From assembly GCA_963776545.1 (NCBI GenBank), contig CAVZND010000011.1, positions 99,487 to 163,486 of the forward strand: a stretch of 64,000 bases of DNA, given 5' to 3'. A model generated the notes under the pieces. It was not told the DNA's origin, did not search any database, and saw nothing but the letters and a program-made list of their open reading frames with translations. Every line of letters starts with the position of its first letter. The stretch's first letter is position 1. Origin of the DNA: an uncultured Chloroflexia bacterium. Its GTDB lineage: Bacteria > Chloroflexota > Limnocylindria > Limnocylindrales > CSP1-4. Below are positions 27,634 through 40,386 of the stretch, piece by piece. The translations under genes and the position numbers were made by a program.

Positions 27634-28068
27634 TCATGGCCGGCGCGCCGGCGTCATCGCGTCGTGCCCGGGGAGTCCGCATTCGGACAGGGCGGCGGCG
27701 AACCCGTCGAGGTCGTCGACCGTCAGGTAGAGCGCCGGGACGCGCAGCCCCATCCGGGGGACCGGCTCACGGAAGTCGATGCGGACGCCGCCACGGTTGG
27801 TGCCACCAAATGTCAGGTCCCGATGGCGGACGCTGTAGCGGACGCCGATCGCGGTGATCCAGCGCCACGGACCCTCGATCCGCCACGAGGCGAGGTTGCT
27901 CGTCGGTGTCCGGAATCGGAAGAAGCCGAAGTGCGCATCGAGCTCGTCGTCGCCGAGATCGACGTAGGCGTTGGACGCCCGGACCCCGAACAACAGAAGG
28001 ACGAACCTCGACCGCCTGCCGAGTCGAAGCGGGAACCGATGGGTGCTCGCCGCGGCAGGCAGCGTCAC
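27634..28068 (-). CDS. hypothetical protein (144 aa), last gene of the CFA-synthase operon
   Basis: GTG 28068 overlaps the cfa stop (GTGA at 28065-28068). Good GC3. No motif recognised. Confidence 0.7.
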   Translation of the reverse strand: MTLPAAASTHRFPLRLGRRSRFVLLLFGVRASNAYVDLGDDELDAHFGFFRFRTPTSNLASWRIEGPWRWITAIGVRYSVRHRDLTFGGTNRGGVRIDFREPVPRMGLRVPALYLTVDDLDGFAAALSECGLPGHDAMTPARRP

Positions 28069-29306
28069 CCGATCCCGCGCCGCTTCTCGAACACGACCTG
28101 CAGATCCTGGCTGATCCCGGTCGCGAAGCCTGCCTCGCTCAGTGCGAGGTAGTACTCCCACATCCGGATGAACCGGTCGTCGAACCCCATCCGCCGGACG
28201 GACTCGAGCTGGGCCATGAACCGCGTCCGCCAGGCCCGCAGCGTCAGCACGTAGCTGGGGCCGATGTCTGTCACGCCGCGGACCAACAGCCGGGTGTCGC
28301 GGGTCGCGCGTTCGATGACCGAGAGCGATGGGCAGAGACCGCCCGGGAAGATGTACGTCTGGATCCAGTTGGCCCCCCGGCGCTGCGTCTCGTAGGCGGC
28401 GTCCGGGAACGTGATCGACTGGAGGCTCATCCGCCCGCCTGGGACCAGCGCCGCGTCGCAGGTCCGGAAGAATGTCTCGAAGTACTCGGCGCCGACCGCC
28501 TCGAGCATCTCGATCGAGACGATCGCATCGTACGTGCCGCTGATCTCGCGGTAGTCGCGCAGCTGGACATCGATGAGGCCGTCGAGACCCGCGTCGCGGA
28601 CGCGCTCGCGGGCGAGCTCGAACTGCTCACGCGAGATCGTGATCGAGGTGACACGGCAGCCGATCTCGCCGGCGGCATACAGGGCGAACCCGCCCCATCC
28701 GGTGCCGATCTCCAGGACGTGGTCGCCTCGGGTCAGGCCCGCCCCCTCGGCCACGAGCCGGTACTTGTTGCGCTGAGCGTCGGCGAGGGACTGGTCGGGC
28801 GATGCGAAGACCGCGCTCGAGTAGGTCATGGTCTCGTCCAGGAACAGCCGGTAGAAGTCGTTGCCGAGATCGTAGTGGGCGGCGATGTTGCGCTGGCTCT
28901 GCCGGCGGGTGTTGCGCCGCAATCGATGGGCAAGCGTCCGTCGGAGCTGGGCGGGCACGCGCCACCAGCCACTCGACAACGCCAGCGCCTCTCGATTCAA
29001 GGCGGCAACGCGCAGGAGAACTGCCAGGTCCGGGCTCGACCAGAGACCGTCCATGTACGCTTCGCCGCCGCCGGTCTCGCCGCCGACGAGCATCCGGACG
29101 AGCGCCTTGCGGTCATGGATGCGGATCTCGCCCCGTTCCGGCGCCGTCGGGTCGCCGAAGACCTGGCTCGATCCGTCGGGGAGCACGACGGTCAGGGCGC
29201 CGACGCGGATGCGGGCCAAACCGGCCAGCCCGATGCGCCAGGCGATGCGTGCAAGGAATGAGTCGTCGGTCGCGGGAGCGCCTCCCGCAGTGATTCGCGT
29301 GTTCAT
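28065..29306 (-). CDS. cfa: cyclopropane-fatty-acyl-phospholipid synthase family SAM-dependent methyltransferase
   Basis: SAM motif VLEIGTGWGGFALYAA and the CFA-synthase family layout (NIAAHYDLGNDFY...). ATG 29306 overlaps the DUF1365 stop (ATGA). Confidence 0.9.
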   Translation of the reverse strand: MNTRITAGGAPATDDSFLARIAWRIGLAGLARIRVGALTVVLPDGSSQVFGDPTAPERGEIRIHDRKALVRMLVGGETGGGEAYMDGLWSSPDLAVLLRVAALNREALALSSGWWRVPAQLRRTLAHRLRRNTRRQSQRNIAAHYDLGNDFYRLFLDETMTYSSAVFASPDQSLADAQRNKYRLVAEGAGLTRGDHVLEIGTGWGGFALYAAGEIGCRVTSITISREQFELARERVRDAGLDGLIDVQLRDYREISGTYDAIVSIEMLEAVGAEYFETFFRTCDAALVPGGRMSLQSITFPDAAYETQRRGANWIQTYIFPGGLCPSLSVIERATRDTRLLVRGVTDIGPSYVLTLRAWRTRFMAQLESVRRMGFDDRFIRMWEYYLALSEAGFATGISQDLQVVFEKRRGIG

Positions 29307-30043
29307 CGCGTGGCAGCTCCATGTCGATGGAAGGCGGCCCCGCGCCGCCACAGCCGCAGGGCATGCCAGTGGATGAGCCCGATCGTCTTCTGGGTGACGA
29401 AGGGGTGACGGACGAGCATCCGCGCGACGGCCCGATCCGTGAGCGGCCGGCGGGTGAGGTCGAGGCTTGTGTGCAGGAGCAGTTCGCTAGCCTGGTCCTC
29501 GTTGATCGAGATCCGTAGTCGCCCCGGCTCGTCGCGGACTCGGACCGTGTAGCGCCCGACCATCTCGATGAAGGGCGAAACGTAGAAGTCCTTGTCCATC
29601 GAGGCCGCGAAGTCAAGCTCGTTCGTCGGGCGGCGGAGGGTGTACAGGTGCCGTTCGCGATAGGTGTTGTGGACCTCGACGATGACGACCTGCAGCTCGC
29701 CGGCAGCATCCCGGCATAGATAGAAGCTCGCCGGGTTGAAGACATAGCCGAAGACCCGCAGGTTGGCGATGAGGGTGATCCGCCATCCGTCCGGATCGAT
29801 CCCCTCCGTTCGAAGGAGCGCGCGGGCCGCCTCGGACAGATCCACCGCCGGCGGGGCCAAGTGGTCCCCGTCCCGGAACGAGAGGAGATTGGGCCGGTTG
29901 CGGCTGACGAGCCGGACCTTGCGGGGCACCACATCGAGCTCATCGAGATCAAGCGCGACGTAGTAGACGTCGTGCTCGAGCGCGTACACGAACGGACGGG
30001 CGCGGCGGTGGCGCACCTTGCCCTCGAGCAAATGCGACCTCAC
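29303..30043 (-). CDS. DUF1365 domain-containing protein
   Basis: [32 protein letters not shown]... is the typical DUF1365 N-terminus. GTG 30043 overlaps the upstream stop (GTGA). Confidence 0.88.
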
Positions 30044-31311
30044 GCCGCACGCTCCTGGACGGCCGGTAACAGCAGCTCGGCTACCTCGAATCCGGATCGA
30101 CAACCGTCCTCGTGGAACCCGTAGCCAAGGTGGGCCCCGGCGTAGAAGGTGCGCCGTCGGCCCTGGAGTTCCCGTACGGCCCCCTGGGCATCCAGCGTGC
30201 GGAACGTGTAGAGCGGGTGACTGAAGCTCCGTTCCACGAGGACGCGCTCCCGATCCACCCGGTCGCCCGAATTCACTGATGTGAAGTACTGGACCGGCCC
30301 TGGCAGCGACTGCAACCGGTTCATGTGGTACGTCATAGCGAGCCCTTCGCCCGGTCGCCGGCAGTCCGCCTGGTCGACGTTCCAGGAAGCCCAGGCACGA
30401 CGTCGCCGGGGCATGAGCCGGGCGTCCGTGTGGAGCGTGACCTGGTTCCTGTTGTACTCGAATGCCCCGAGGACGGCTCGCTCGTGCGGATCGGCATCGC
30501 GCAGGACCGCCAGCGCGTCATCCGCATGCGTCGCGATGACGACCGCGTCGAACCGTTCGGTTGCGCCGGCGGCTGTCATGACGGTGACCCCCAGGTCGTC
30601 GCGAACCACGCCGACGACCGCATCCCCGGACCGCACCGACCCCGCCGGGAGCGCGGCGACGATGCGCCGGACGTACGCCATCGAACCACCGCTGATCGTC
30701 CGCCACTGGAAGGATCGGCCGACCCCGATCAGGCCGTGGTTGTCGAGGAACCGCAGGAGATAGTCGATCGGGAAGTCGAGGATCCGCTCCGGCGCCGTCG
30801 ACCACACCGCCGAGGTGATCGGGATGATGAAGTGGTTGCGGAAGCCCGACCCGTAGCCACCGTCGTCGAGGAAGTCGCCCAGCGTGGCGCGCGACAGCGT
30901 GTTCGCGTCGAGAAGCCGCCGAGCCTCGCCGTAGAACCGCAGGACATCCGTGATCATCCGCCAATGGGAGGGACGGACGACCGAATCGGTTCGCGCGAAA
31001 TAGCCGCGCGCACCGCGCGAGCTGAAGGCCACGCGACAGGCATGGCAAGCGGAGCCCAGGGACATGTCGCTCGGCTGCGTCTCCACGCCGAGTTCGGCCA
31101 GGAGTCCGGTGAAGCGCGGGTACGTGCGTTCGTTGTAGACGATGAATCCGGTGTCGACGGGAATGGCCCCACCATCGGCTTCCACGGGTACGGTCTTGAC
31201 ATGCCCGCCGACCGCCGGTTCCGATTCGAACAGCCGGACCTCGTGGTCCGTCCGCAGAGCGTATGCGGCGGTCAGCCCGCTCACGCCGCCCCCCACGACG
31301 GCGATCCTCAT
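30040..31311 (-). CDS. NAD/FAD-binding amine-oxidase-like oxidoreductase (partner of DUF1365/CFA synthase)
   Basis: ATG 31311 ([19 protein letters not shown]...[10 protein letters not shown] dinucleotide fold). The N-terminal 380 aa of listed ORF 30040..32460 is antisense to the SDR gene. Confidence 0.9.
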
Positions 31312-31781
31312 GACGGGTCCGCCTGGAACTGGCCACCCGCGGTATCGGCCCGAGCGTCGAGGGCGCGCTGCATCCCGGCGAGCGCATCGCGGCCAAGCTT
31401 CGCGAACGCCCGACCGAGGAACGGCTGGACGAGCCGCAGGACGCCGCCCAACCGGATGTCGGCCGAGTAGTCGATCCGGGTGCCGCTCCCGGATGGTTCG
31501 AAGCGGATCTCGTCGACCGCCGAGACCCCCGAACCCTGCCCCACGAGGACGACCCGGTGGGGCGGCTGGAAGGTGGAGATCCGGTACTCCATCGGGGCGA
31601 CCCGGCCCCCAAGTCGGACATCCAGTCGATAGCGGGCGCCGAGCCCGACAGGGCCGTCGTCGATCCGTTCGGAGGTGACGGTGCCGGGGTCCCAATGCAT
31701 CGCGTTCGCGAAGTCCGCGATGAAGGCGAACGCCGCCTCCGGTTCCAGCGGCGTTTCGATGTGCTCGGTGATCCTGGTCAC
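31308..31781 (-). CDS. SRPBCC family (polyketide cyclase/dehydrase-like) protein
   Basis: [30 protein letters not shown]... SRPBCC pattern. GTG 31781. Its stop overlaps the next ATG (ATGA at 31308-31311). Confidence 0.8.
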
Positions 31782-31867
31782 GGTCGACTCCGATCCGGGT
31801 GATACTCGGGCGCACGGGGGACCCATCCGGACCAAGCGATGGCCGGTCCGCCGGTGCGATCCGAGAG

Positions 31868-32866
31868 GTGTTGGTGGACGTCAGGACGCTCATCGACGGC
31901 GGCCTCGAGATGTCGGTCGTGGCGAGCTTCAGTCGGGTAGGCATCGCCGTTCGCCGACGGCTGTTCCGCTGGACTGCGCCACCGGCCGATGCGCTCGCGG
32001 GCCGGACGGTCCTGATCACGGGCCCGACGTCCGGCCTGGGCCGTGCGGCGACGGAAGCTTTCGCCGGACTCGGGGCGCGCGTGATCCTCGTCGGCCGCAG
32101 CCGGGAACGGCTCACAGCGGTTCGGGATGCCCTCGTGGCCGTCCACGGCGAGGACCGCTTCCCGATCGTCGTGGCCGACATGGGCTCGCTCGACTCGGTC
32201 CGCGCGGCCGTCGAGCGCGTGCTGGCCACCGAGTCGCGGCTCGACGTCCTCGTCGACAACGCGGGCGCGATCTTCCCCGAACGGACCGACGGGCCGGACG
32301 GGATCGAGGCCACCCTGGCGACCCTGGTCGTGGGGCCCTTCACCCTCGTGTCGGGCCTCCTGCCGCTGCTCCGGCAGACCGAGGGATCGCGGGTCATCGC
32401 CGTGACCTCGGGTGGCATGTACACGCAGGGCGTCCGCTTTGACGACCTGCAGTGGGTCACCGAGCCGTTCTCGGGCCCGCGGGCCTATGCCGGCGCCAAG
32501 CGGATCCAGGTCGCGCTCATGCGGGAGTGGGCGCGTCGGCTTACGCCGTCCAACGGCTCGTCCGGCATCACCGTCAACGCGATGCATCCCGGTTGGGCCG
32601 ACACGCCGGGACTCGCCGAGGCCCTGCCGGGCTTCTATCGCTTGATGGGTCCGGTCCTCCGAACCCCGGCCGAAGGGGTGGACACGCTCGTGTGGCTGGC
32701 TGCGTCGCCCGAAGCCGGAGTGCGGAGCGGCGAACTCTTCCTGGACCGCCGCCCGAGGCCCTTCGACCGCTTCCCGGGGACGCGTCTCTCGCCCGTCGAT
32801 CGCCGACGTCTTTGGCGAATGGTCGTGGAGTTGTCCGGTGTGCCCGACCCCCTTCCCGAAGGCTGA
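31868..32866 (+). CDS. SDR family oxidoreductase (DHRS12-like)
   Basis: [10 protein letters not shown] cofactor motif, NAG, and catalytic YAGAKR. Divergent from the SRPBCC operon. GTG 31868 chosen; ATG 31910 is an alternative. Confidence 0.88.
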
Positions 32867-33040
32867 GGCGGCGAACCTCGACGAAACCGCGCTGGGGGCA
32901 TGGTTTGCGGACACGGCGATAGGCGTGGTCTTCGGCTCGGATCGGCGATCCACTGACGGGGACTCCTGGTCGTGAACGAGGTGGCTCCGGGCCCCCTCGA
33001 GTCGAGGTTGGTGTTCACCCTTTGTTTAAGGTATGCCGAA

Positions 33041-33090
33041 CTGTAGCGGCAGTGTCCAGGGATTGTCAAGCTATTCTGGGTGCGTATACT
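33041..33090 (+). promoter_or_regulatory. promoter of the CarH/LitR gene with 11-bp-phased TGT repeats (candidate CarH operator); near-leaderless
   Basis: -35 TTGTCA (33063-33068), 16-nt spacer, -10 TATACT (33085-33090), ATG at 33100. TGT recurs at 33042, 33053 and 33064. tTGTcaAgcTa matches the reverse complement of the CarH direct-repeat pattern nAnnTnnACAn as I recall it. Confidence 0.45.
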
Positions 33091-33099
33091 CAACAAAGC

Positions 33100-34053
33100 A
33101 TGTACACAATCAAACAGGCCGCGGCCCGCACCGGCCTCAGCGTCCCGGTCATCCGGGTCTGGGAGCGCCGGTATGGCGTCGTGCAGCCGAGCCGTACTCC
33201 GGCCGGCTACCGGCTCTACGACGAGGAGTCGATCGCCCGCCTGGCCGCGATGCGCCGATTGGTCGCCGAGGAGGGCTGGCAGCCAAGGCAAGCGGCGCAA
33301 CGGGTGCTCGAGCCTGGGTTCGATCCGCTGGAGGCAGTCGGCGAAAGCGCGGGCCGGGCCGATCGGGCCGGATCGTCGATCGGCTTGGTCACCGGCGTCG
33401 GGCAGCGAGATCAAGAGGTGTCGCTAGTGCGCGCGTTCGTCGCCGCGGCCCACGACCTGGACGTTCCGGCCATGGAGCGGATCCTTGACGAGGGATTCGC
33501 GTCCCATCGCTTTGAGCTGGCGATCGAGGCTCTTGTCTCTCCGGCAATGCGAGCTATCGGCATCGCCTGGGCCCAGGACGAGATCGACGTCGGCGCTGAA
33601 CATGCGGCGAGCGAAACGGTCCGACGACGGCTGGCGCGCTTCTACGATGCGGCCGGGCTCGGTGACCGGGTACCACGTGTGGTCGTCGGCCTGCCCCCGG
33701 ATGGGCAGCACGAGATCGGGGCATTCGCCTTCGCCGTGGCCACCCGGCGGGCCGGGCTCGAAGTGCTCTATCTCGGTGCGAACGTGCCGCTGGAGAGCTG
33801 GCTCCGGACCGTCGATGAGACCATGGCGCCGGTCGTCGTCATGGGGGTGGTGACGCCGTCCGATGTCGTAGCGGCGGGCGTCGTGATCGACGCGCTCGGC
33901 CAGTCAGCCAGATCGCCGATCTGCCTCGTCGGCGGCCCGCTGTCCGCCGATTCGCTCGGCGGACTCGAGACCATCCGCCTTCCGACGCCACTCGACGACG
34001 CGGTGGCGGCGGTGGCCAGGCTCCTCGGCTCCGACGAACGGGCCCCCCGCTGA
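33100..34053 (+). CDS. MerR family, cobalamin-binding light-responsive transcriptional regulator (CarH/LitR type)
   Basis: MerR HTH (MYTIKQAAARTGLSVPVIRVWERRYGVVQPSRTPAGYRLY). B12-binding_2 helix bundle with W-x9-EH (AWAQDEIDVGAEH). B12-binding Rossmann domain with the His loop (PPDGQHEIG). Confidence 0.9.
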   Translation: MYTIKQAAARTGLSVPVIRVWERRYGVVQPSRTPAGYRLYDEESIARLAAMRRLVAEEGWQPRQAAQRVLEPGFDPLEAVGESAGRADRAGSSIGLVTGVGQRDQEVSLVRAFVAAAHDLDVPAMERILDEGFASHRFELAIEALVSPAMRAIGIAWAQDEIDVGAEHAASETVRRRLARFYDAAGLGDRVPRVVVGLPPDGQHEIGAFAFAVATRRAGLEVLYLGANVPLESWLRTVDETMAPVVVMGVVTPSDVVAAGVVIDALGQSARSPICLVGGPLSADSLGGLETIRLPTPLDDAVAAVARLLGSDERAPR

Positions 34054-34093: not shown

Positions 34094-34960
34094 TCACGGG
34101 ACCGGTCGAGCGCCGCGTCCCCTCAGCGCTTGGATCAAGTCGCCAAGCATTCGCGGGTCCGGGACCCATCCGTCCGCGCCGAGATCTAGCGCCGCCCGCT
34201 CGTCGGGGATCGCGTGTCCGCCGACCAACCGTGGAACCGACGGCCGTTCCCGACGGGCGGCGGCCAAGAGGCGCCCGGCTGCCGGTCGACGCTCGCTGTC
34301 GACGACACTCACGATGACCGCGGCCAACGATCCTGCATCGTGCATCGCAGCGGCAAACGACGCCGTCGGAGTGTCGGGGCCCAGGTTGAGGACGCCATAT
34401 CCGGCGTGGGCGAGGATGTCGGCGAGCATCGCGACCCCGAGTCCGTGACGTTCGCCGGGCGGCATCGCCACGATGACGACGCCCTTCTTGCGGCCTGGGC
34501 GCGCGAAGCGCGGGCCCAGGCGTCCGATCAGCGTCGCAGCCACACTGCTCGCGAGATGCTCCTGGTCGATGGAGATGTCGCCCGATCGCCACGACGCCCC
34601 GATGTCGCGGAGCGTCGGCGTGAGGATGCTCACGTAGATCTCGCCTGGCTCGAGTCCCGAGGCCATGGCCGCTTCGACGACTTGCCAGCTGCCCGCCGCG
34701 TCGCCGCTGAGCATTCGCGCCTGGAGACGCTCCTGCCAGGTCGATACCCGCGGATGACCAGTCCCGCGGCGGCGACGACCACGGTCGGGCGTTGTGGTCG
34801 TCCGCTCGAGATCGGCGGGATCGACCATCCACGTTCCGCCGACCTTCCGTGCCGGCAGGATCCCCAGCCGAACGCGCCGGTAGATCGTCATGTAGTGGAC
34901 GCCGACGCGTTCGGCCGCCTCGTGCAGGCTGAGATGACCGGACGCGTCGGATGGGGTCAA
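34094..34960 (-). CDS. excisionase-type HTH + cobalamin-binding domain protein (second CarH-type photoreceptor candidate)
   Basis: HTH (LSLHEAAERVGVHYMTIYRRVRLGILPARKVGGTWMV), W-x9-EH (SWRSGDISIDQEH), His loop (PPGERHGLG). TTG 34960 overlaps the heliorhodopsin stop (TTGA at 34957-34960). Confidence 0.85.
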   Translation of the reverse strand: MTPSDASGHLSLHEAAERVGVHYMTIYRRVRLGILPARKVGGTWMVDPADLERTTTTPDRGRRRRGTGHPRVSTWQERLQARMLSGDAAGSWQVVEAAMASGLEPGEIYVSILTPTLRDIGASWRSGDISIDQEHLASSVAATLIGRLGPRFARPGRKKGVVIVAMPPGERHGLGVAMLADILAHAGYGVLNLGPDTPTASFAAAMHDAGSLAAVIVSVVDSERRPAAGRLLAAARRERPSVPRLVGGHAIPDERAALDLGADGWVPDPRMLGDLIQALRGRGARPVP

Positions 34961-35727
34961 CCCGCCAGCGTCCCCGCGAACACCTGCCAGGCGAGCGCCG
35001 ACTTCGCGACCAGGCTGAGCATGAAATAGGCCCTCTCGCCGAAGACGTACGACTGCCAGCGACCGACCCGCCGGTACTGGAGCCACATGTTAAGCGCGAA
35101 TATGTTGAAGAAGACGAAGAGCGAAAGGAAGATCGCGTAGACGAAGGCGGGCGGCTCGGCCGCACTTCCTGGTGACCAAAGGTAGACACCAACGGCCAAC
35201 CACGGCGCGATCCCCACGACGCACCCAAGCCAGAACGGCCACAGCGAGCCGCCCGGCCGCTCGTATCGCTCCTGGACCGCACCGAAGAAGATCATCGCTG
35301 CGTTGGCGGCGAAGATGCCGATGAGTGCCGCGACATCGCTGATCCCGGTGAGCATCGCGATGAGCACGATCATCACCGACGATGAGAGCGAGTACTCGGC
35401 CCAGCGAAAGTAGTTGTGCTCCGCCCCCAGTCCGGCGATGTAGCGCCCGAACACGCCGGGCAGCGCCACGAGCCAGTGGAACACGGCCGACAGCAGGAGG
35501 AAGAGGGCGACGCCCCAAGCCACGGAGACTTCGAACAGCGGGATCGGCGCGCTGGCCGGGGTGCCCGGCGGCCCCTCCATGAACGTCGCCGTTACCGGCA
35601 GCGCGAAGGCGGTCGCGAGGGCGAGGACGGCGACGGCCTGGATGGCATGGACGAAGCCCAGCCCGATGTTCCAGCGCCGCAGGGAGGCGGCCCGGGTGAC
35701 AGGGAGGTCCAAGGTTGGCGAGATCAT
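34957..35727 (-). CDS. heliorhodopsin
   Basis: Blocks EGPPGT, SAVFHWLV, FRWAEYSLSSSVMIVLIA, PFWLGCVVGIAPW, FVFFNIFALNMWLQYR and GERAYFMLSLVAKSALAWQVFAGTL (TM7 Lys) match heliorhodopsin 48C12 almost residue for residue as I recall it. ATG 35727 chosen; GTG 35748 (after AAAGGAA) is an alternative. Confidence 0.92.
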   Translation of the reverse strand: MISPTLDLPVTRAASLRRWNIGLGFVHAIQAVAVLALATAFALPVTATFMEGPPGTPASAPIPLFEVSVAWGVALFLLLSAVFHWLVALPGVFGRYIAGLGAEHNYFRWAEYSLSSSVMIVLIAMLTGISDVAALIGIFAANAAMIFFGAVQERYERPGGSLWPFWLGCVVGIAPWLAVGVYLWSPGSAAEPPAFVYAIFLSLFVFFNIFALNMWLQYRRVGRWQSYVFGERAYFMLSLVAKSALAWQVFAGTLAG

Positions 35728-35775
35728 GCGTTGGTCGGTGGCGATCACAGACTGAGTTCCTTTGCATGGGGATGC

Positions 35776-35807
35776 GGGTGGAGCCCGGAGGAGAACGGGC
35801 CCCACCC
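35776..35807 (-). terminator. 12-bp stem hairpin between the fasciclin gene and heliorhodopsin
   Basis: Minus-strand RNA GGGUGGGGCCCG-uucuccuc-CGGGCUCCACCC (one G-U pair). No U-tract. It sits 28 nt after the fasciclin stop and 28-48 nt before the heliorhodopsin start. Confidence 0.45.
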
Positions 35808-35834: not shown

Positions 35835-36430
35835 TCAGTCGGCCGGCGGCAGGATGACAGCGTCGATGACGTGGATGACGCCATTGGACGCCAACACGTC
35901 GGCGGTGACGACCTTGGCGCTACCGTTCAGGAAGACGGTTCCGTCCTTGACGGACGACAGCTGATGGGCGATCCCTCGACCGAGTCGGCAGAGGTGAGTC
36001 CGACGACCTTGTCGGCCGTCACGGCCGCGGGGACGACGTGATACAGCAGGACCTTCTTGAGGGCTTCCTTGTCGGCGAGCAACCCCTCGAGCGTGCCGGC
36101 AGGCAGCGCGGCGAACGCCTCGTCGGTCGGGGCGAAGACGGTGAACGGACCGTCGCCCTGGAGCGTCTCCACGAGACCGGCGGCCTTGGCCGCGGTCAGC
36201 AGGGTGGTGAACGAGCCCGCTTCGGTGGCGGTCTCGACGATGTCCTTTGCCATGGCGTCAGCCGACGGCGAAGGCGCCATGCTCGGGGATGCGGCGTTGG
36301 TCGATGCCGGGCTCGGAGTGGACACGACGGTTGGCGCTGCGCTCGGCGACGCGGCGGACGAGCAGGCCGCGATCGCGATCGCGAGCGCTGGCACGAGGAG
36401 GACGATGGATCGCTTCATGGTCGATGACAT
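35835..36430 (-). pseudogene. fasciclin (FAS1) domain lipoprotein, reading frame broken by an apparent 1-nt deletion near 35958-35965
   Basis: Lipobox AIAACSS and FAS1 blocks [13 protein letters not shown] and LLYHVV. ORF 35927..36430 ends in ...[17 protein letters not shown]. The conserved FAS1 C-terminus ([41 protein letters not shown], stop at 35835-35837) continues in another frame. Confidence 0.8.
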
Positions 36431-36479: not shown

Positions 36480-36508
36480 AGTATTTAGCACTAAATACAA
36501 TCTGTCAA
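36480..36508 (-). promoter_or_regulatory. sigma70-like promoter of the fasciclin gene with an embedded 18-bp palindrome
   Basis: Minus strand: TTGACA (36503-36508), 17-nt spacer, AATACT (36480-36485). The palindrome GTATTTAG-ca-CTAAATAC (36481-36498) fills the spacer and -10. A second palindrome GTCGGGCaGCCCGAC (36454-36468) lies in the 5' UTR. Confidence 0.5.
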
Positions 36509-36629: not shown

Positions 36630-37178
36630 CTGGGCGCCACTTCCGGTCAGTGCTCGACGACCTGCTCCAGGTTGCCGGCCGCCTCGATCCAGGCGGTGAT
36701 CTCGGCCTCGCTCGGTAGACGGCGGACGATCCCAGGCCGGGCGGCGACGACCTCCTGGACGGTCACCGCGAGGTTCGCCGGGTTGCGCTGGGCCAACTCG
36801 GCCGGTGAGCCGACGCCGGCGGCCCCGAGCAGGTCGCTGTACTGCGGCCCGACGCCCGGGACCCGCATGAGATCGACGTTGTCGACCCAATCGAGGATGA
36901 GCTTGCTGCTGATCCCGGTCGCCTCGGCGAGCCGCTCGCGGTCGTATGGCCGAGCACCAGCCGCGAGCAGGTCGTCGGTCGTCCGGATACCCGCGCCGGC
37001 GAGCGTCTCGCCATAGGCCGGTCCGATCCCCTCGACGTCCTCGATCTTCTTCGAGCGGGCGGCTTGGGGCTCCTCGACGTCTGCCGCCGCGACCACGGCA
37101 GGCGGGCGCCTCGACGGGCTCCGGAGCTGCCGCCTCGATCGCGACCGCAGCGACGGCCGCGGCCGCGACAGGAGCCGG
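36630..37178. repeat. 549-bp direct repeat, copy 1 (3' part of a DUF4332 gene plus 17 bp downstream)
   Basis: Aligned by eye to 39839..40386, it differs by 3 substitutions and one 1-nt indel (extra G near 37100-37103). Confidence 0.95.
36647..37096 (-). CDS. DUF4332 domain protein, truncated duplicate (possible gene remnant)
   Basis: The 149-aa ORF is identical to the C-terminus of the 39856..40845 product. It starts at an internal GTG. The upstream Ala/Pro linker remnant is out of frame because of the indel and there is no N-terminal membrane domain. Confidence 0.55.
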   Translation of the reverse strand: MVAAADVEEPQAARSKKIEDVEGIGPAYGETLAGAGIRTTDDLLAAGARPYDRERLAEATGISSKLILDWVDNVDLMRVPGVGPQYSDLLGAAGVGSPAELAQRNPANLAVTVQEVVAARPGIVRRLPSEAEITAWIEAAGNLEQVVEH

Positions 37179-37188
37179 CCACCCCAGG

Positions 37189-38478
37189 TCAGGTACCGTC
37201 GCCGGGGTCGTACAGCTCGACCGCTCGGCTGTTCTTGCTGTAGTCGCCCGCCAGGAGGACCCTGCCGTCGAGGAGCACGGTCGCGCTGTAGCCGACTCGG
37301 GCCCGGACCGGTTTCGCGGTACTGGTCCAGCGGTCGCTGCTCGGGTCGTAGAGCTCTGCGGAGGGAGGCCTGTCCCAGAGGCCCTCATTGACGACGAGCA
37401 CGGTGCCATCCGTCAGGAGCGTCGCCGTGTGGAAGATGCGGGCCGTCCCCATGCTGCCGGTCGCGGTCCATCGCCCGCTGACCGGGTCGTACAGCTCGGC
37501 GGTGGCCCATGCGCCGGGCTCACTGCAGGCGCAACCGCCCGTGACCAGCACCGTCCCGTCGGTCAGGAGCGTCGCCGTGTGACCGAAGCGACCGTCGGCC
37601 ATGCTCCCGGTGGCGGTCCATCGGCCCGTGTCGGGGTCGAACAGCTCCGCGGACGTGTAGCCACCGTCGCCGCCAGCGACGAGGACCCGGCCGTCGGGCA
37701 GCAGCGTCGCGGTGAAGCCCTTGCGAGCCTCGGTCATGCTTGCGATCGTCATCCAGCTACCGGTGATGGGGTCGTACAGCTCAGCGGTCGCGCTTCGCGG
37801 CCCGCCTTCCAGCTCCGTGTCCTCGGCACCGCCGCCCACCACGAGCACCTTCCCGTCGAGCAGCAGCGTGGCGGTGTGTCCACCGCGGCCATGGCGCATC
37901 GTCCCGGTGGCGGTCCATCGCCCCGTGCCCGGGTCGTACAGCTCGGCCGTTGCCAGCGGATCGGCGCTGTTGATGTAGCTGCCCGCCACAAGCACCTTGC
38001 CATCCGGTAGCAGCGTCGCGGTATGCCCCCAGCGGGCCCCCGCCATCTTCCGAGTGGCCGTCCATTTGCCGACGCTCGGGTCGAACAGCTCGGCGGAGGC
38101 GGAAACCTGACCATCCAGTCGGTCGTTGACCAGGCCGCCGGCGACGAGCACGCGGCCGTCGGGGAGCAGCGTCGCCGTGTGATAGGCGTGGGGCGCGATC
38201 ATCTTCCCGGTCGCATGCCACGCAGCGGTCGCGGTCACGGGTGGTGTCACCGGCTGGACCGATGCCGGTGCGATCGATGCCTGCAGGGGGCTCGGGGACG
38301 CTTCGGCGGACCGCACCGAGCTCACCGTCGGCGACGGGTACGGCGACGGCGAGGGTGTCGCGACCGAACCCAGTGACGCCGGCAGAGGCGACGTCGTCGC
38401 ACCGGCAACACATCCGCCCAGCAACGCCAGCGAGGCGAGACCCACCCCGAGTCGTGCGGTCCTCGTGTGACGATGCAT
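37189..38478 (-). CDS. Kelch-repeat (7-bladed beta-propeller) lipoprotein
   Basis: ATG 38478 after GGAGG. Lipobox LLGGC. Seven regular repeats of the form HTATLLPDGxVLVAGG...AELYDPxTGxWTATGxM. Confidence 0.88.
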   Translation of the reverse strand: MHRHTRTARLGVGLASLALLGGCVAGATTSPLPASLGSVATPSPSPYPSPTVSSVRSAEASPSPLQASIAPASVQPVTPPVTATAAWHATGKMIAPHAYHTATLLPDGRVLVAGGLVNDRLDGQVSASAELFDPSVGKWTATRKMAGARWGHTATLLPDGKVLVAGSYINSADPLATAELYDPGTGRWTATGTMRHGRGGHTATLLLDGKVLVVGGGAEDTELEGGPRSATAELYDPITGSWMTIASMTEARKGFTATLLPDGRVLVAGGDGGYTSAELFDPDTGRWTATGSMADGRFGHTATLLTDGTVLVTGGCACSEPGAWATAELYDPVSGRWTATGSMGTARIFHTATLLTDGTVLVVNEGLWDRPPSAELYDPSSDRWTSTAKPVRARVGYSATVLLDGRVLLAGDYSKNSRAVELYDPGDGT

Positions 38479-38602
38479 CGCGTCTGCCTCCGGGTCCACC
38501 CCGAGCGCCTTCGATCGCCTGGTGCTTTCGAGCCTAGGACGCGTCGCCGGGTCGGATGTTTCGGCCGGTCGCGTGCGTCACAGCGAGTCGTAGGATGCAA
38601 CG

Positions 38603-39793
38603 GTGCGGCGCTTGCTGGACCAAGCCCTGTCCATCGCGGCGGAGGCGGGCGACGACGACGATCTGCGCCTTCGCAAGCGCGTGGCCGTCATCGCCGGCTA
38701 CGTCACGATCGGTGCTGTCCTCATCCTCCCACTCGTTGGGACCGCGACCTTCCTGACGGTGGTCGCGGCGCTCGCGATCGCGATGGCCATGGCGGGCAAC
38801 CTCATCCTCCTCGCCCGCACGCGTCGCTTCACCCGCTTCGTCATCGTGAGCTTGTTGGCGGGAGCCGCCTACACGCTCTTCGCCGACACTGCCGAGGGAG
38901 GACTCGCAGCCTCCGGAGGCTGCGTCGTCTGGGCGTTGCTGATCCCCGTATTCGCCATCCTGTTCCTCGGCCCACGGCAAGCGATCCCGTGGTACGGGCT
39001 CTTCGTTGGCGTCCTCGTGACGATCATCCTCATCGATCCGCTGGTGAGCGCTCGACCGGCGCCAGCCCCGTACTGGATCCAGCTGACCTACTGGTTCGAG
39101 AACATCGCGGTGCCGGGAACGATCATCTTCCTCCTCCTCCGATACACGGACATCCGGCGTCTCGGCGCCCAGGCCCGGTCGGACGAGCTCCTGACCAACG
39201 CCATCCCGGCCTCGATCGCCGCGCGACTCAAGCACGGCGAACAACGGATCGCGGAACGGTATTCGGATACGACCATCCTGTTCTCGGACATCGTCGGTTT
39301 CACCCCGTGGGCGCTTCGAACCGATCCGGACCGGGTCGTTGCCCTCCTGGACCAGCTCTTCACCAGCTTCGACGAGCTGGCTTCCACGCACGGCATCGAG
39401 AAGATCAAGACCATCGGCGACGCGTACATGGCCGCCTCCGGTGCGCCGGAGGCGCGGTCAGACCACGCGGAAGCAGCCCTGGCGATGGCGTCCGCCATGC
39501 TCGTCGCGTTCAACGACTGGCGAGCGGACAATGCGCCGGACTTGGCCCTGCGCATCGGGCTCGCATCAGGAGACGTCGTGGCGGGGGTCATTGGGGAGCA
39601 GCGCGCCCAGTTCGACCTGTGGGGTGACGCGGTCAATCTCGCCTCCCGCATGGAGGCGACCGGGGTGCCCGGGCGGATCCAGGTCGCGCAGTCGACATGG
39701 GCGCTGTTGCGCGATCGGCATGCGTTCGAGGCGCGGAAGCCGATGGAGATCAAGGGGCTGGGCCTGACGCCGACCTACCTGCTCGCGCCGTGA
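38603..39793 (+). CDS. membrane-anchored class III adenylate/guanylate cyclase
   Basis: 6 TM helices, then a cyclase homology domain (TILFSDIVGFT...KIKTIGDAYMAASG...RIGLASGDVVAGVIG...DLWGDAVNLASRME). GTG 38603 lies 6 nt after TAGGAT, so the transcript is possibly leaderless. Confidence 0.9.
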   Translation: MRRLLDQALSIAAEAGDDDDLRLRKRVAVIAGYVTIGAVLILPLVGTATFLTVVAALAIAMAMAGNLILLARTRRFTRFVIVSLLAGAAYTLFADTAEGGLAASGGCVVWALLIPVFAILFLGPRQAIPWYGLFVGVLVTIILIDPLVSARPAPAPYWIQLTYWFENIAVPGTIIFLLLRYTDIRRLGAQARSDELLTNAIPASIAARLKHGEQRIAERYSDTTILFSDIVGFTPWALRTDPDRVVALLDQLFTSFDELASTHGIEKIKTIGDAYMAASGAPEARSDHAEAALAMASAMLVAFNDWRADNAPDLALRIGLASGDVVAGVIGEQRAQFDLWGDAVNLASRMEATGVPGRIQVAQSTWALLRDRHAFEARKPMEIKGLGLTPTYLLAP

Positions 39794-39838: not shown

Positions 39839-40386
39839 CTGGGCGCCACTTCCCGTCAGTGCTCGACGACCTGCTCCAGGTTGCCGGCCGCCTCGATCCA
39901 GGCGGTGATCTCGGCCTCGCTCGGTAGACGGCGGACGATCCCAGGCCGGGCGGCGACGACCTCCTGGACGGTCACCGCGAGGTTCGCCGGGTTGCGCTGG
40001 GCCAACTCGGCCGGTGAGCCGACGCCGGCGGCCCCGAGCAGGTCGCTGTACTGCGGCCCGACGCCCGGGACCCGCATGAGATCGACGTTGTCGACCCAAT
40101 CGAGGATGAGCTTGCTGCTGATCCCGGTCGCCTCGGCGAGCCGCTCGCGGTCGTATGGCCGAGCACCAGCCGCGAGCAGGTCGTCGGTCGTCCGGATACC
40201 CGCGCCGGCGAGCGTCTCGCCATAGGCCGGTCCGATCCCCTCGACGTCCTCGATCTTCTTCGAGCGGGCGGCTTGGGGCTCCTCGACGTCTGCCGCCGCG
40301 ACCACAGCAGCGGGCGCCTCGACGGGCTCCGGAGCTGCCGCCTCGATCGCGACCGCAGCGACGGCCGCGGCCGCGACGGGAGCCGG
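39839..40386. repeat. 548-bp direct repeat, copy 2 (within the intact DUF4332 gene)
   Basis: See copy 1. The period is 3209 bp. Confidence 0.95.

Follow-up and report, generated by a model that had tools for sequence, protein, structure and literature searches.

What links a heliorhodopsin gene to the gene of a cobalamin-binding transcription factor whose start codon overlaps its stop codon? This question is raised by a 64-kb stretch of DNA (contig CAVZND010000011.1 of assembly GCA_963776545.1; hereafter the window, to which all coordinates refer unless stated otherwise) from an uncultured Chloroflexia bacterium; the G+C content of the stretch is 69.5%. On its minus strand, a heliorhodopsin gene (34957–35748) is followed by a gene (34094–34960) encoding a CarH-like candidate adenosylcobalamin (AdoCbl) photoreceptor, in which a helix-turn-helix (HTH) domain of the HTH_17 type is joined to the domains B12-binding_2 and B12-binding. 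Heliorhodopsins are widespread and their physiological role is largely open, with few partner-specific functions reported. An earlier inspection of the window (hereafter the original prediction) had read the overlap of the two genes as evidence of a signalling pair or of a two-chromophore switch. The comparative data presented here fit a regulator and its regulated gene better. We propose, with a probability of roughly 60%, that the locus is a three-gene operon with one promoter, that its last gene encodes a CarH/LitR-like autorepressor released by light, and that heliorhodopsin is the light-induced cargo.

The first of the two proteins matches the Pfam heliorhodopsin profile PF18761 over its full length (profile positions 1–242 of 242; E = 6.7e-96, 320.8 bits at a cutoff of 26.7), and its closest solved structures are those of heliorhodopsin 48C12 (6su3, 9ljj and 6uh3; E ~1e-82). 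In a phmmer alignment to 6su3, residues H23, H80, E107 and K241 of 48C12 correspond to His, His, Glu and Lys of the window protein. The two His are found in the blocks GFVHAIQ of transmembrane helix (TM) 1 and SAVFHWLV of TM2, the counter-ion Glu in FRWAEYSLSSS of TM3 and the Schiff-base Lys in SLVAKSALAWQ of TM7. Judged by profile and alignment, on which the TM7 Lys is kept, the gene encodes a genuine heliorhodopsin, as had been predicted. The description “nearly identical to 48C12” applies to the Glu and Lys motif blocks and not to the protein as a whole, in which 135 of 243 residues are identical (56%). The extent of the open reading frame (ORF), originally given as 34957 to 35805, also had to be revised: the actual start is a GTG at 35748 with the sequence AAGGA at 35762–35758, yielding 263 amino acids (aa). 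The protein called publicly at this position of the 172-kb source contig is identical, again with 263 aa. The longer, 282-aa ORF from the GTG at 35805 was rejected as a mechanical artefact, its start codon lying within the stem of a conserved hairpin described below. No carotenoid or retinal genes (crt, blh) were found among about 50 window ORFs scanned with Pfam, in agreement with the original prediction; the same scans revealed no genes for B12 synthesis or uptake, and an Rfam search detected neither a cobalamin riboswitch nor any other known RNA family in the window.

The second protein (288 aa, TTG start, identical to the public gene call) scores above the Pfam cutoffs for HTH_17 (33.2 bits, cutoff 27), B12-binding_2 (PF02607; 46.6, cutoff 23) and B12-binding (PF02310; 43.3, cutoff 32.1). 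Its W-x9-EH motif (GASWRSGDISIDQEH) and its His loop PPGERHGLG align with W131, E141, H142 and H177 of Thermus thermophilus CarH (TtCarH) and with the Chloracidobacterium protein CtMerR (8jbs), so that the proposed excisionase-type HTH fused to a B12 module with CarH motifs is upheld. The best sequence matches in the PDB are the B12 domain of this MerR-family protein (8jbs), TtCarH/LitR (5c8d and 3whp) and photocobilins. In the SignatureFinder study of 2024, light-responsive cobalamin domains, which occur fused to various HTH domains, are set apart from other cobalamin domains by the motifs GxxW, EH, GxxH and GxxxP (PMC11796333). All four are present in the regulator as GASW, QEH, GERH and GPDTP. 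Across 43 orthologues of related loci, neither GxxW nor EH ever varies and GxxH and GxxxP hardly do, barring one or two frameshifted sequences.

An AlphaFold2 model of the regulator, built with 26 homologues (mean pLDDT 82), points in the same direction. All of the best 50 matches listed by Foldseek are B12 photoreceptors, namely TtCarH (5c8f, 5c8d), photocobilins and CtMerR. Full-length TtCarH chains align to the model over ~285–300 columns, with the N-terminal domain covered, and the B12-binding domain of CarH superposes with a TM-score of ~0.8 on the target and a root-mean-square deviation of 2.5–2.9 Å. By sequence and predicted fold, the protein has every hallmark of a CarH-type light sensor and looks like a photoreceptor rather than an enzyme module. 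The family of its N-terminal domain is less clear-cut: HTH_17 is the domain above the cutoff, no MerR model of Pfam reaches an E value of 0.01, and one relative matches MerR at E = 0.0027, which is below the cutoff. At JGI, orthologues are called either “MerR family, light-induced transcriptional regulator” or “excisionase family”. We do not file the protein as a plain member of the CarH family because of this HTH_17 assignment and of the single inverted-repeat site described below. A recognition helix with the sequence VHYMTxYR is shared by more than 530 metagenome stretches, and the regulators linked to heliorhodopsin are, by the scans described next, one branch of a wider HTH_17-B12 family.

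To see how far the gene pair extends, we scanned one genome per GTDB species for heliorhodopsins and compared the window proteins with the resulting 80 loci by tblastn. Most loci are from soil metagenome-assembled genomes (MAGs) labelled Chloroflexia or Candidatus Limnocylindrales, the rest mainly from Acidimicrobiia and other Actinomycetota. Where the heliorhodopsin is at least 73% identical to that of the window, the regulator gene lies directly downstream and on the same strand in 45 of the 46 loci with at least 300 nt of downstream sequence, and elsewhere in none. At 60–73% identity, 17 loci have this much sequence; four carry the regulator gene directly downstream in the same orientation and two elsewhere. 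Below 60% identity, none of 16 loci shows it in either position. The reverse scan, a search of metagenome contigs with the regulator alignment, was evaluated for loci with at least 200 nt of upstream sequence: heliorhodopsin is encoded directly upstream in 10 of 11 loci at a regulator identity of at least 70% (elsewhere in none), in 14 of 18 at 53–70% (elsewhere in one) and in none of 45 below 53% (elsewhere in two). The adjacency of the two genes far exceeds chance. Recurrence of the B12-HTH neighbour at other heliorhodopsin loci, which had been named beforehand as one of the observations on which the prediction would stand or fall, was found in the closest relatives at almost every locus. 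Regulators that are 42–52% identical adjoin genes for SDR proteins or ECF σ factors instead of heliorhodopsin, and lie ahead of them. Two apparent fusions of heliorhodopsin and B12 protein (P0004, P0115) were discarded as assembly errors, in which a frameshifted or deleted heliorhodopsin is read into the overlapping frame.

The junction between the two genes is the sequence TTGA (34957–34960, minus strand), in which the heliorhodopsin stop codon TGA (34959–34957) and the regulator start codon TTG (34960–34958) overlap by 4 nt, exactly as originally described. Across ~28 loci of the window clade, the junction takes one of two forms: TTGA, in which a TTG start overlaps the stop codon by 4 nt, or TGATG, in which an ATG start overlaps it by 1 nt. 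Both forms are homologous ([C/T]TG-A[T/C]N); therefore, a start codon overlapping the stop codon has been kept through sequence change. Conservation of the overlap is confined to this clade. In a sister clade of Chloroflexota the genes are separated by ~41–58 nt, mostly 46 nt, and the spacer is mostly occupied by a mini-ORF of 15–16 codons (MxxxxPWHDAPxVxx), whose ATG overlaps the TGA of heliorhodopsin and whose stop codon overlaps the start of the regulator gene (L019, L022, L026, L035, L038, L040, L043, L052, L093, L095, L100, L106 and L125). This mini-ORF is absent from the clade of the window. As the spacer of one locus (L034) lacks the ATG, the conserved sequence might act as an RNA element rather than as an ORF. 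In Acidimicrobiia, a spacer of 50–64 nt ahead of the regulator gene contains the element TTTAGTGATAATAT, which includes an operator-like half-site, 6–10 nt before the start codon (L042, L047–L050, L094 and L096–L098); from its sequence and position, this element looks like the regulator's own autoregulated promoter on a leaderless mRNA. Because the form of the junction differs among clades, tight coupling is clade-specific and the adjacency older. As in the original prediction, the two genes are co-oriented and translationally coupled, and the pair is conserved.

The operon begins one gene earlier than the two genes first assigned to it; besides this gene, the original prediction had overlooked the hairpin between the cistrons, the promoter with its candidate operator and a neighbouring B12 regulator of MerR type, all described below. 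At most loci, the heliorhodopsin gene is preceded by a gene for a fasciclin-domain lipoprotein, which in the window spans 35835–36430 (minus strand; Pfam Fasciclin, E = 3.6e-25, 88 of 123 profile positions) and whose product shows a signal peptide and the lipobox AIAAC, as read from the sequence. Its reading frame is broken in the window by a 2-nt insertion relative to all relatives, at about 35950–35960 on the minus strand: the ORF as listed stops at 35927, and the conserved C-terminus ending in NGVIHVIDAVILPPAD is encoded in another frame up to a TGA at 35837–35835. The insertion probably arose in assembly, given how often frameshifts occur in these MAGs; otherwise the gene would be a pseudogene. 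Between the fasciclin stop codon and the ribosome-binding site of heliorhodopsin, a GC-rich RNA hairpin can form (35776–35807, minus strand; arms GGGTGGGGCCCG and CGGGCTCCACCC, with one G-U pair). It folds at every locus, with a stem sequence that differs between clades (Chloroflexota, Acidimicrobiia); in an alignment of 16 diverse loci, the consensus contains 12 pairs, 11 of which show compensatory double changes. The hairpin is not followed by a run of T residues, and it ends ~15 nt from the AAGGA and ~28 nt from the GTG start codon of heliorhodopsin, so there is no room for a promoter behind it. As a protein operator it was ruled out: its stem sequence varies by clade while the recognition helix of the regulator is invariant. 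In our reading it may act as an intra-operon attenuator or an mRNA-stability element, with a terminator as a further possibility.

A single σ70-like promoter was identified between 33900 and 36700, ahead of the fasciclin gene: a –35 region TTGACA (36503–36508) and a –10 region AATACT (36480–36485; AATAAT in some relatives) on the minus strand, separated by 17 bp and matching the consensus at 10 of 12 positions (0.1 expected). None was found in this interval between the fasciclin and heliorhodopsin genes or between the heliorhodopsin and regulator genes, and TTGAC[AT] is kept at the same spacing in most related loci. A palindrome, the inverted repeat TTTAGT-N-CTAAA (TTTAGTGCTAAA, 36484–36495; in its 14-mer form ATTTAGTGCTAAAT, 36483–36496), covers the spacer of this promoter and the initial bases of its –10 region; we consider it a candidate operator of the HTH_17-B12 regulator. 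It occurs once in the 64-kb window, at 0.14 expected.

We then searched 1.28 Mb of related loci for TTTAGTNCTAAA with up to one mismatch and obtained 100 distinct positions, compared to 0–2 in ten dinucleotide shuffles. With few exceptions, the sites precede heliorhodopsin operons; in relatives that lack heliorhodopsin, they stand before the gene of the regulator itself or before that of an ECF σ factor. Of 74 loci encoding both heliorhodopsin and regulator, 57 carry the palindrome, and among the remaining loci are several on contigs truncated upstream. There is one copy per such locus, with two or more only in L133 and L148. In the heliorhodopsin operons of Chloroflexota and Acidimicrobiia, the palindrome keeps a constant spacing to TTGAC[AT] and precedes the fasciclin start codon by ~70 nt. 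If the fasciclin gene is missing (L003, L008, L015, L030, L033 and L036), promoter and palindrome are found 50–110 nt before the heliorhodopsin start instead, and heliorhodopsin is directly under this promoter. Two loci (L044, L045) show the palindrome just before heliorhodopsin with no regulator gene nearby. One metagenome contig (L084, 1655–3413) keeps promoter, palindrome, fasciclin gene and regulator gene (81% identical) and has ~350 nt in place of heliorhodopsin; it appears to represent a natural loss of the rhodopsin.

At loci without heliorhodopsin, it is the regulator gene that has the palindrome 30–100 nt upstream (among them L108, L110, L111, L114, L118, L120–L123, L130, L134, L136, L145, L147 and L152); the site is also found in the intergenic region of divergent SDR and regulator genes (such as L108 and L109). 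A pair of palindromes 26–34 nt apart precedes an ECF σ factor gene in L116, L124 and L136. In L144, L149 and L155, another pair, 18 nt apart, sits ~750 nt ahead of the regulator gene; the gene in between encodes a conserved protein of 226–229 aa without a Pfam match, presumably a member of the regulon. L133 (4953–7529) and L148 have the regulator gene first, then the palindrome promoter and the genes for an ECF σ factor, a zf-HC2 anti-σ factor and a heliorhodopsin that is 54–55% identical, an arrangement that resembles a LitR/LitS-like module ending in heliorhodopsin; LitS is an ECF σ factor under the control of LitR (PMC11519972). The helix VHYMTxYR accompanies the same palindrome with or without heliorhodopsin, even in regulators of only 42–52% identity, and of the genes around the site, that of the HTH_17-B12 protein alone is a constant companion. 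This co-occurrence is the pattern expected of an autoregulated repressor and its operator.

Based on these observations, we propose the following model for the operon of fasciclin lipoprotein, heliorhodopsin and HTH_17-B12 regulator, transcribed from the promoter at 36480–36508. B12-dependent tetramers of CarH occupy their operator in the dark and fall apart in the light (PMC4557120). By analogy, the AdoCbl-bound regulator would oligomerise in the dark and occupy the palindrome over the spacer and the –10 region, blocking RNA polymerase. Green or blue light would break the Co-C bond, the oligomer would dissociate and the operon would be transcribed. In the light, fasciclin lipoprotein, heliorhodopsin and fresh repressor would be made, and the switch would thereby control its own gene. 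Within the transcript, the hairpin would probably lower read-through or stabilise the upstream mRNA, leading to less heliorhodopsin and regulator, while the stop/start overlap would tie translation of the regulator to that of heliorhodopsin and so set the repressor dose. The data show the identities of the genes, the signatures and predicted fold of a B12 photoreceptor, the conservation of synteny and overlap, the promoter, the joint occurrence of palindrome and regulator, and the covariation in the hairpin; we infer binding of the palindrome by this regulator, its need for AdoCbl and its reversal by light, as well as the action of the hairpin. On this reading, heliorhodopsin is a target of a B12 photoreceptor.

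Several observations weigh against such a model. The DNA-binding domain is HTH_17 according to Pfam and not MerR, and the site is a single palindrome and not a set of tandem direct repeats; because of both features, the geometry of an oligomer on this DNA must differ from that of TtCarH. The signature Trp is followed by Arg (GASWR), leaving no equivalent of His132 of TtCarH, and this position varies among R, Q, L, A, E and K in the orthologues. CtMerR likewise has Arg after the Trp, yet becomes monomeric in the light (PMC11796333). Furthermore, 30 of 57 regulator loci without heliorhodopsin contain no palindrome at up to one mismatch; short contigs account for some of them, and diverged sites may account for others. 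The link of the regulator to this DNA, to AdoCbl and to light is a prediction from sequence and analogy. Finally, the model assigns no function to heliorhodopsin and leaves the strict translational coupling unexplained.

Next to the operon, the window encodes a second and different regulator of the B12 photoreceptor type, as judged from its domains. This gene (33100–34053, plus strand) is convergent to the operon, with 41 nt between the two stop codons, and its product has the canonical MerR-HTH architecture of CarH/LitR (MerR_1, E = 1.8e-14; B12-binding_2, E = 8e-9; B12-binding, 31.2 bits and hence just below the cutoff of 32.1), including W-x9-EH. A promoter-like sequence (TTGTCA-16-TATACT) ends 9 nt before its ATG. 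On its far side from the operon lies a cluster of genes assigned by Pfam, which encode a CFA-synthase (28065–29351), a DUF1365 protein (29303–30103), a flavin amine oxidase (30040–31260) and an SRPBCC protein (31308–31835), all on the minus strand, as well as an SDR protein on the plus strand (31799–32866). Since the palindrome is absent from the part of the window from 28065 to 34053, the promoters under the two B12 regulators are probably distinct. The same cluster adjoins the heliorhodopsin-regulator pair in L001, L024, L027, L033, L053 and L081 and is found beside regulators without heliorhodopsin in L152 and L160. We take the set of CFA-synthase, DUF1365, oxidase and SDR genes to resemble the singlet-oxygen regulon of σE-ChrR in α-proteobacteria and the light-inducible LitR genes of Pseudomonas. 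On the other side, upstream of the operon, are genes for a secreted Kelch-repeat β-propeller protein (37189–38499, minus strand; six repeats of ~145 nt) and for a class III adenylate/guanylate cyclase anchored in the membrane (38603–39793, plus strand). This region also contains an exact direct duplication of 467 nt (36630–37096 and 39839–40305) over an ORF with DUF4332/helix-hairpin-helix similarity. One copy holds a stand-alone ORF of 149 aa (36647–37096), the other forms the C-terminus of a membrane protein of 386 aa, and the nearer copy ends ~120 nt from the operon promoter. The duplication is either recent or an assembly artefact.

How do other explanations compare with light-released autorepression? 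Heliorhodopsin could bind the regulator at the membrane and sequester or release it depending on light, instead of or on top of autoregulation, and would thereby integrate retinal and B12 inputs. The persistence of the overlap in ~28 species and in two interconvertible forms would suit such a signalling pair, as would the pairing in 45 of 46 loci of the clade and the three-cistron chain of the sister clade, coupled at both ends via a conserved 15-codon mini-ORF; heliorhodopsins are also known to bind and modulate a glutamine synthetase (PMC9529153) and an ABC transporter (PMC11109279) encoded next to them. We nevertheless consider signalling unlikely and favour a regulator with its regulated gene, because the regulator family, with the same helix and operator, occurs without heliorhodopsin at many loci, because related regulators precede SDR or ECF σ factor genes instead, because the heliorhodopsins of L044 and L045 have the operator and no adjacent regulator, because the regulator of Acidimicrobiia has an apparent promoter of its own, and because the overlap is confined to one clade. 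In addition, L084 has lost heliorhodopsin and kept fasciclin and regulator, σ and anti-σ factor genes separate regulator and heliorhodopsin in L133 and L148, and the apparent fusions of both proteins are frameshift artefacts. A weak argument against physical contact is that the linker of the regulator is Arg-rich, while published partners bind to positively charged loops of heliorhodopsin. Since regulator, operator and heliorhodopsin occur in modular combinations, signalling does not seem to be the primary logic of the locus. A stronger version would be a physical two-chromophore module in which the rhodopsin, made in a fixed ratio through translational coupling, captures or releases the regulator by light. 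We regard this as improbable. If true, it could reset a photolysed, B12-damaged repressor or add a second channel for colour or intensity, and it would mark the first case of transcriptional output from a heliorhodopsin as well as the first complex of a rhodopsin and a cobalamin photoreceptor.

Two further explanations retain a B12-binding regulator and dispute its input or its site. What the B12 domain reports might be cobalamin supply or redox state and not light. The operon would then answer to B12 supply, and its place beside a rhodopsin would be incidental to photobiology; B12-binding domains do serve light-independent roles, and one of them binds hydroxocobalamin only, according to the SignatureFinder paper (PMC11796333). 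The lack of B12 synthesis or uptake genes and of a riboswitch in the window favours neither side. Given that the four-part light-response signature is complete and conserved, we think light-independent sensing very unlikely. Moreover, the nearest solved relatives are all photoreceptors, and the company of the gene is light-related: heliorhodopsin, a second CarH-type gene, and modules of ECF σ and anti-σ factors. The CFA-synthase, DUF1365, oxidase and SDR genes, with their likeness to photo-oxidative-stress regulons, would point the same way. Alternatively, the palindrome could belong to another regulator, either the adjoining MerR-B12 protein or some global factor, with the HTH_17-B12 protein acting elsewhere. 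A MerR-type B12 gene does adjoin the pair in the window and in L001, L024, L053, L067 and L081. It is, however, absent from most loci with the palindrome, no palindrome lies near the MerR-B12 and SDR promoters of the window, and where heliorhodopsin is missing the site is found upstream of its constant companion, the HTH_17-B12 gene itself. We accordingly give this explanation little credence, and retain the light-released autorepressor as our working model.

The raw association of heliorhodopsin with cobalamin-binding or MerR neighbours has already been noticed in two surveys. Cho et al. 2024 (PMC11109279) list a “MerR family transcriptional regulator” among the ten frequent co-operonic neighbours of heliorhodopsin, and Chazan et al. 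count cobalamin-binding proteins among the light-using families near heliorhodopsins, although not as unique to them; the main text of Bulzu et al. 2021 does not mention an association of heliorhodopsin with a B12 neighbour. Searches of the accessible literature for heliorhodopsin in combination with B12, cobalamin, MerR or fasciclin returned mentions in such neighbour surveys only, and a wider search that took in CarH and LitR had no heliorhodopsin paper among its best 25 results. The searches returned no account of an operator of the HTH_17 subfamily, of an operon of fasciclin, heliorhodopsin and regulator, of the hairpin, or of heliorhodopsin as the regulated target of a B12 photoreceptor. 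We therefore see in the locus a candidate light switch of the CarH/LitR type whose DNA-binding module, operator and cargo are all new.

Across a large, coherent clade in soil Chloroflexota and Acidimicrobiia, the heliorhodopsin gene is tied to one defined promoter with a candidate operator. If the regulatory interpretation is true, the rhodopsin would be made only in the light and under a B12 sensor for green or blue light, which would suggest a photo-stress response rather than constitutive sensing. Taken alone, this would be an informative extension of CarH/LitR, and a new principle only if the two proteins interact; the locus is a clean system for asking whether a heliorhodopsin ever signals to a transcription factor. 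A subfamily of B12 photoreceptors with an excisionase-type HTH and a short palindrome might also serve as a compact green-light switch in synthetic biology.

The closest known systems are the AdoCbl-dependent photoreceptor-repressors CarH and LitR of Thermus thermophilus, Myxococcus xanthus and Bacillus megaterium (PDB 5C8D/5C8E). The window regulator shares with them an N-terminal, apparently winged HTH, the four-helix bundle and the Rossmann B12 domain, as well as the lower-axial His and W-x9-EH; its model superposes over the full length, the gene adjoins its presumed targets, and the presumed operator overlaps a promoter. In the structure of CarH on DNA, the operator of TtCarH is reported to consist of three tandem 11-bp direct repeats. 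The window site is a palindrome of 12–14 bp instead, the DNA-binding domain is HTH_17 (excisionase type) rather than MerR, an Arg replaces His132 of the bis-His light state, and the cargo is heliorhodopsin with a fasciclin lipoprotein in place of carotenoid genes. Sensory rhodopsin systems offer a second parallel: in SRII-HtrII, rhodopsin and signalling protein are co-transcribed as well, Htr being a membrane transducer without a chromophore, whereas contact between the two proteins of the window is only conjectured. With the LitR-LitS system of Streptomyces, relatives of the window regulator share a palindrome, often doubled, before an ECF σ factor gene beside the regulator (L116, L124, L136, L133 and L148); the window operon itself lacks a σ factor gene, and the DNA-binding domain belongs to a different family. 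CtMerR of Chloracidobacterium thermophilum (8JBS/8JBT, PMC11796333) is the best match in the PDB and has the four-motif signature with Arg after the Trp, but its MerR-type DNA-binding domain is divergent and only the B12 domains align (residues 76–236); its operator and targets are not described in the portion of that paper available to us. Finally, heliorhodopsin has been found in operons with a protein that faces the cytoplasm, such as glutamine synthetase (PMC9529153), photolyase (PMC9769723) or OmrDE (PMC11109279), as it is here. In those cases, the partner is an enzyme or transporter modulated by the rhodopsin, whereas the neighbour in the window is a transcription factor of the photoreceptor type that seemingly controls the rhodopsin gene.

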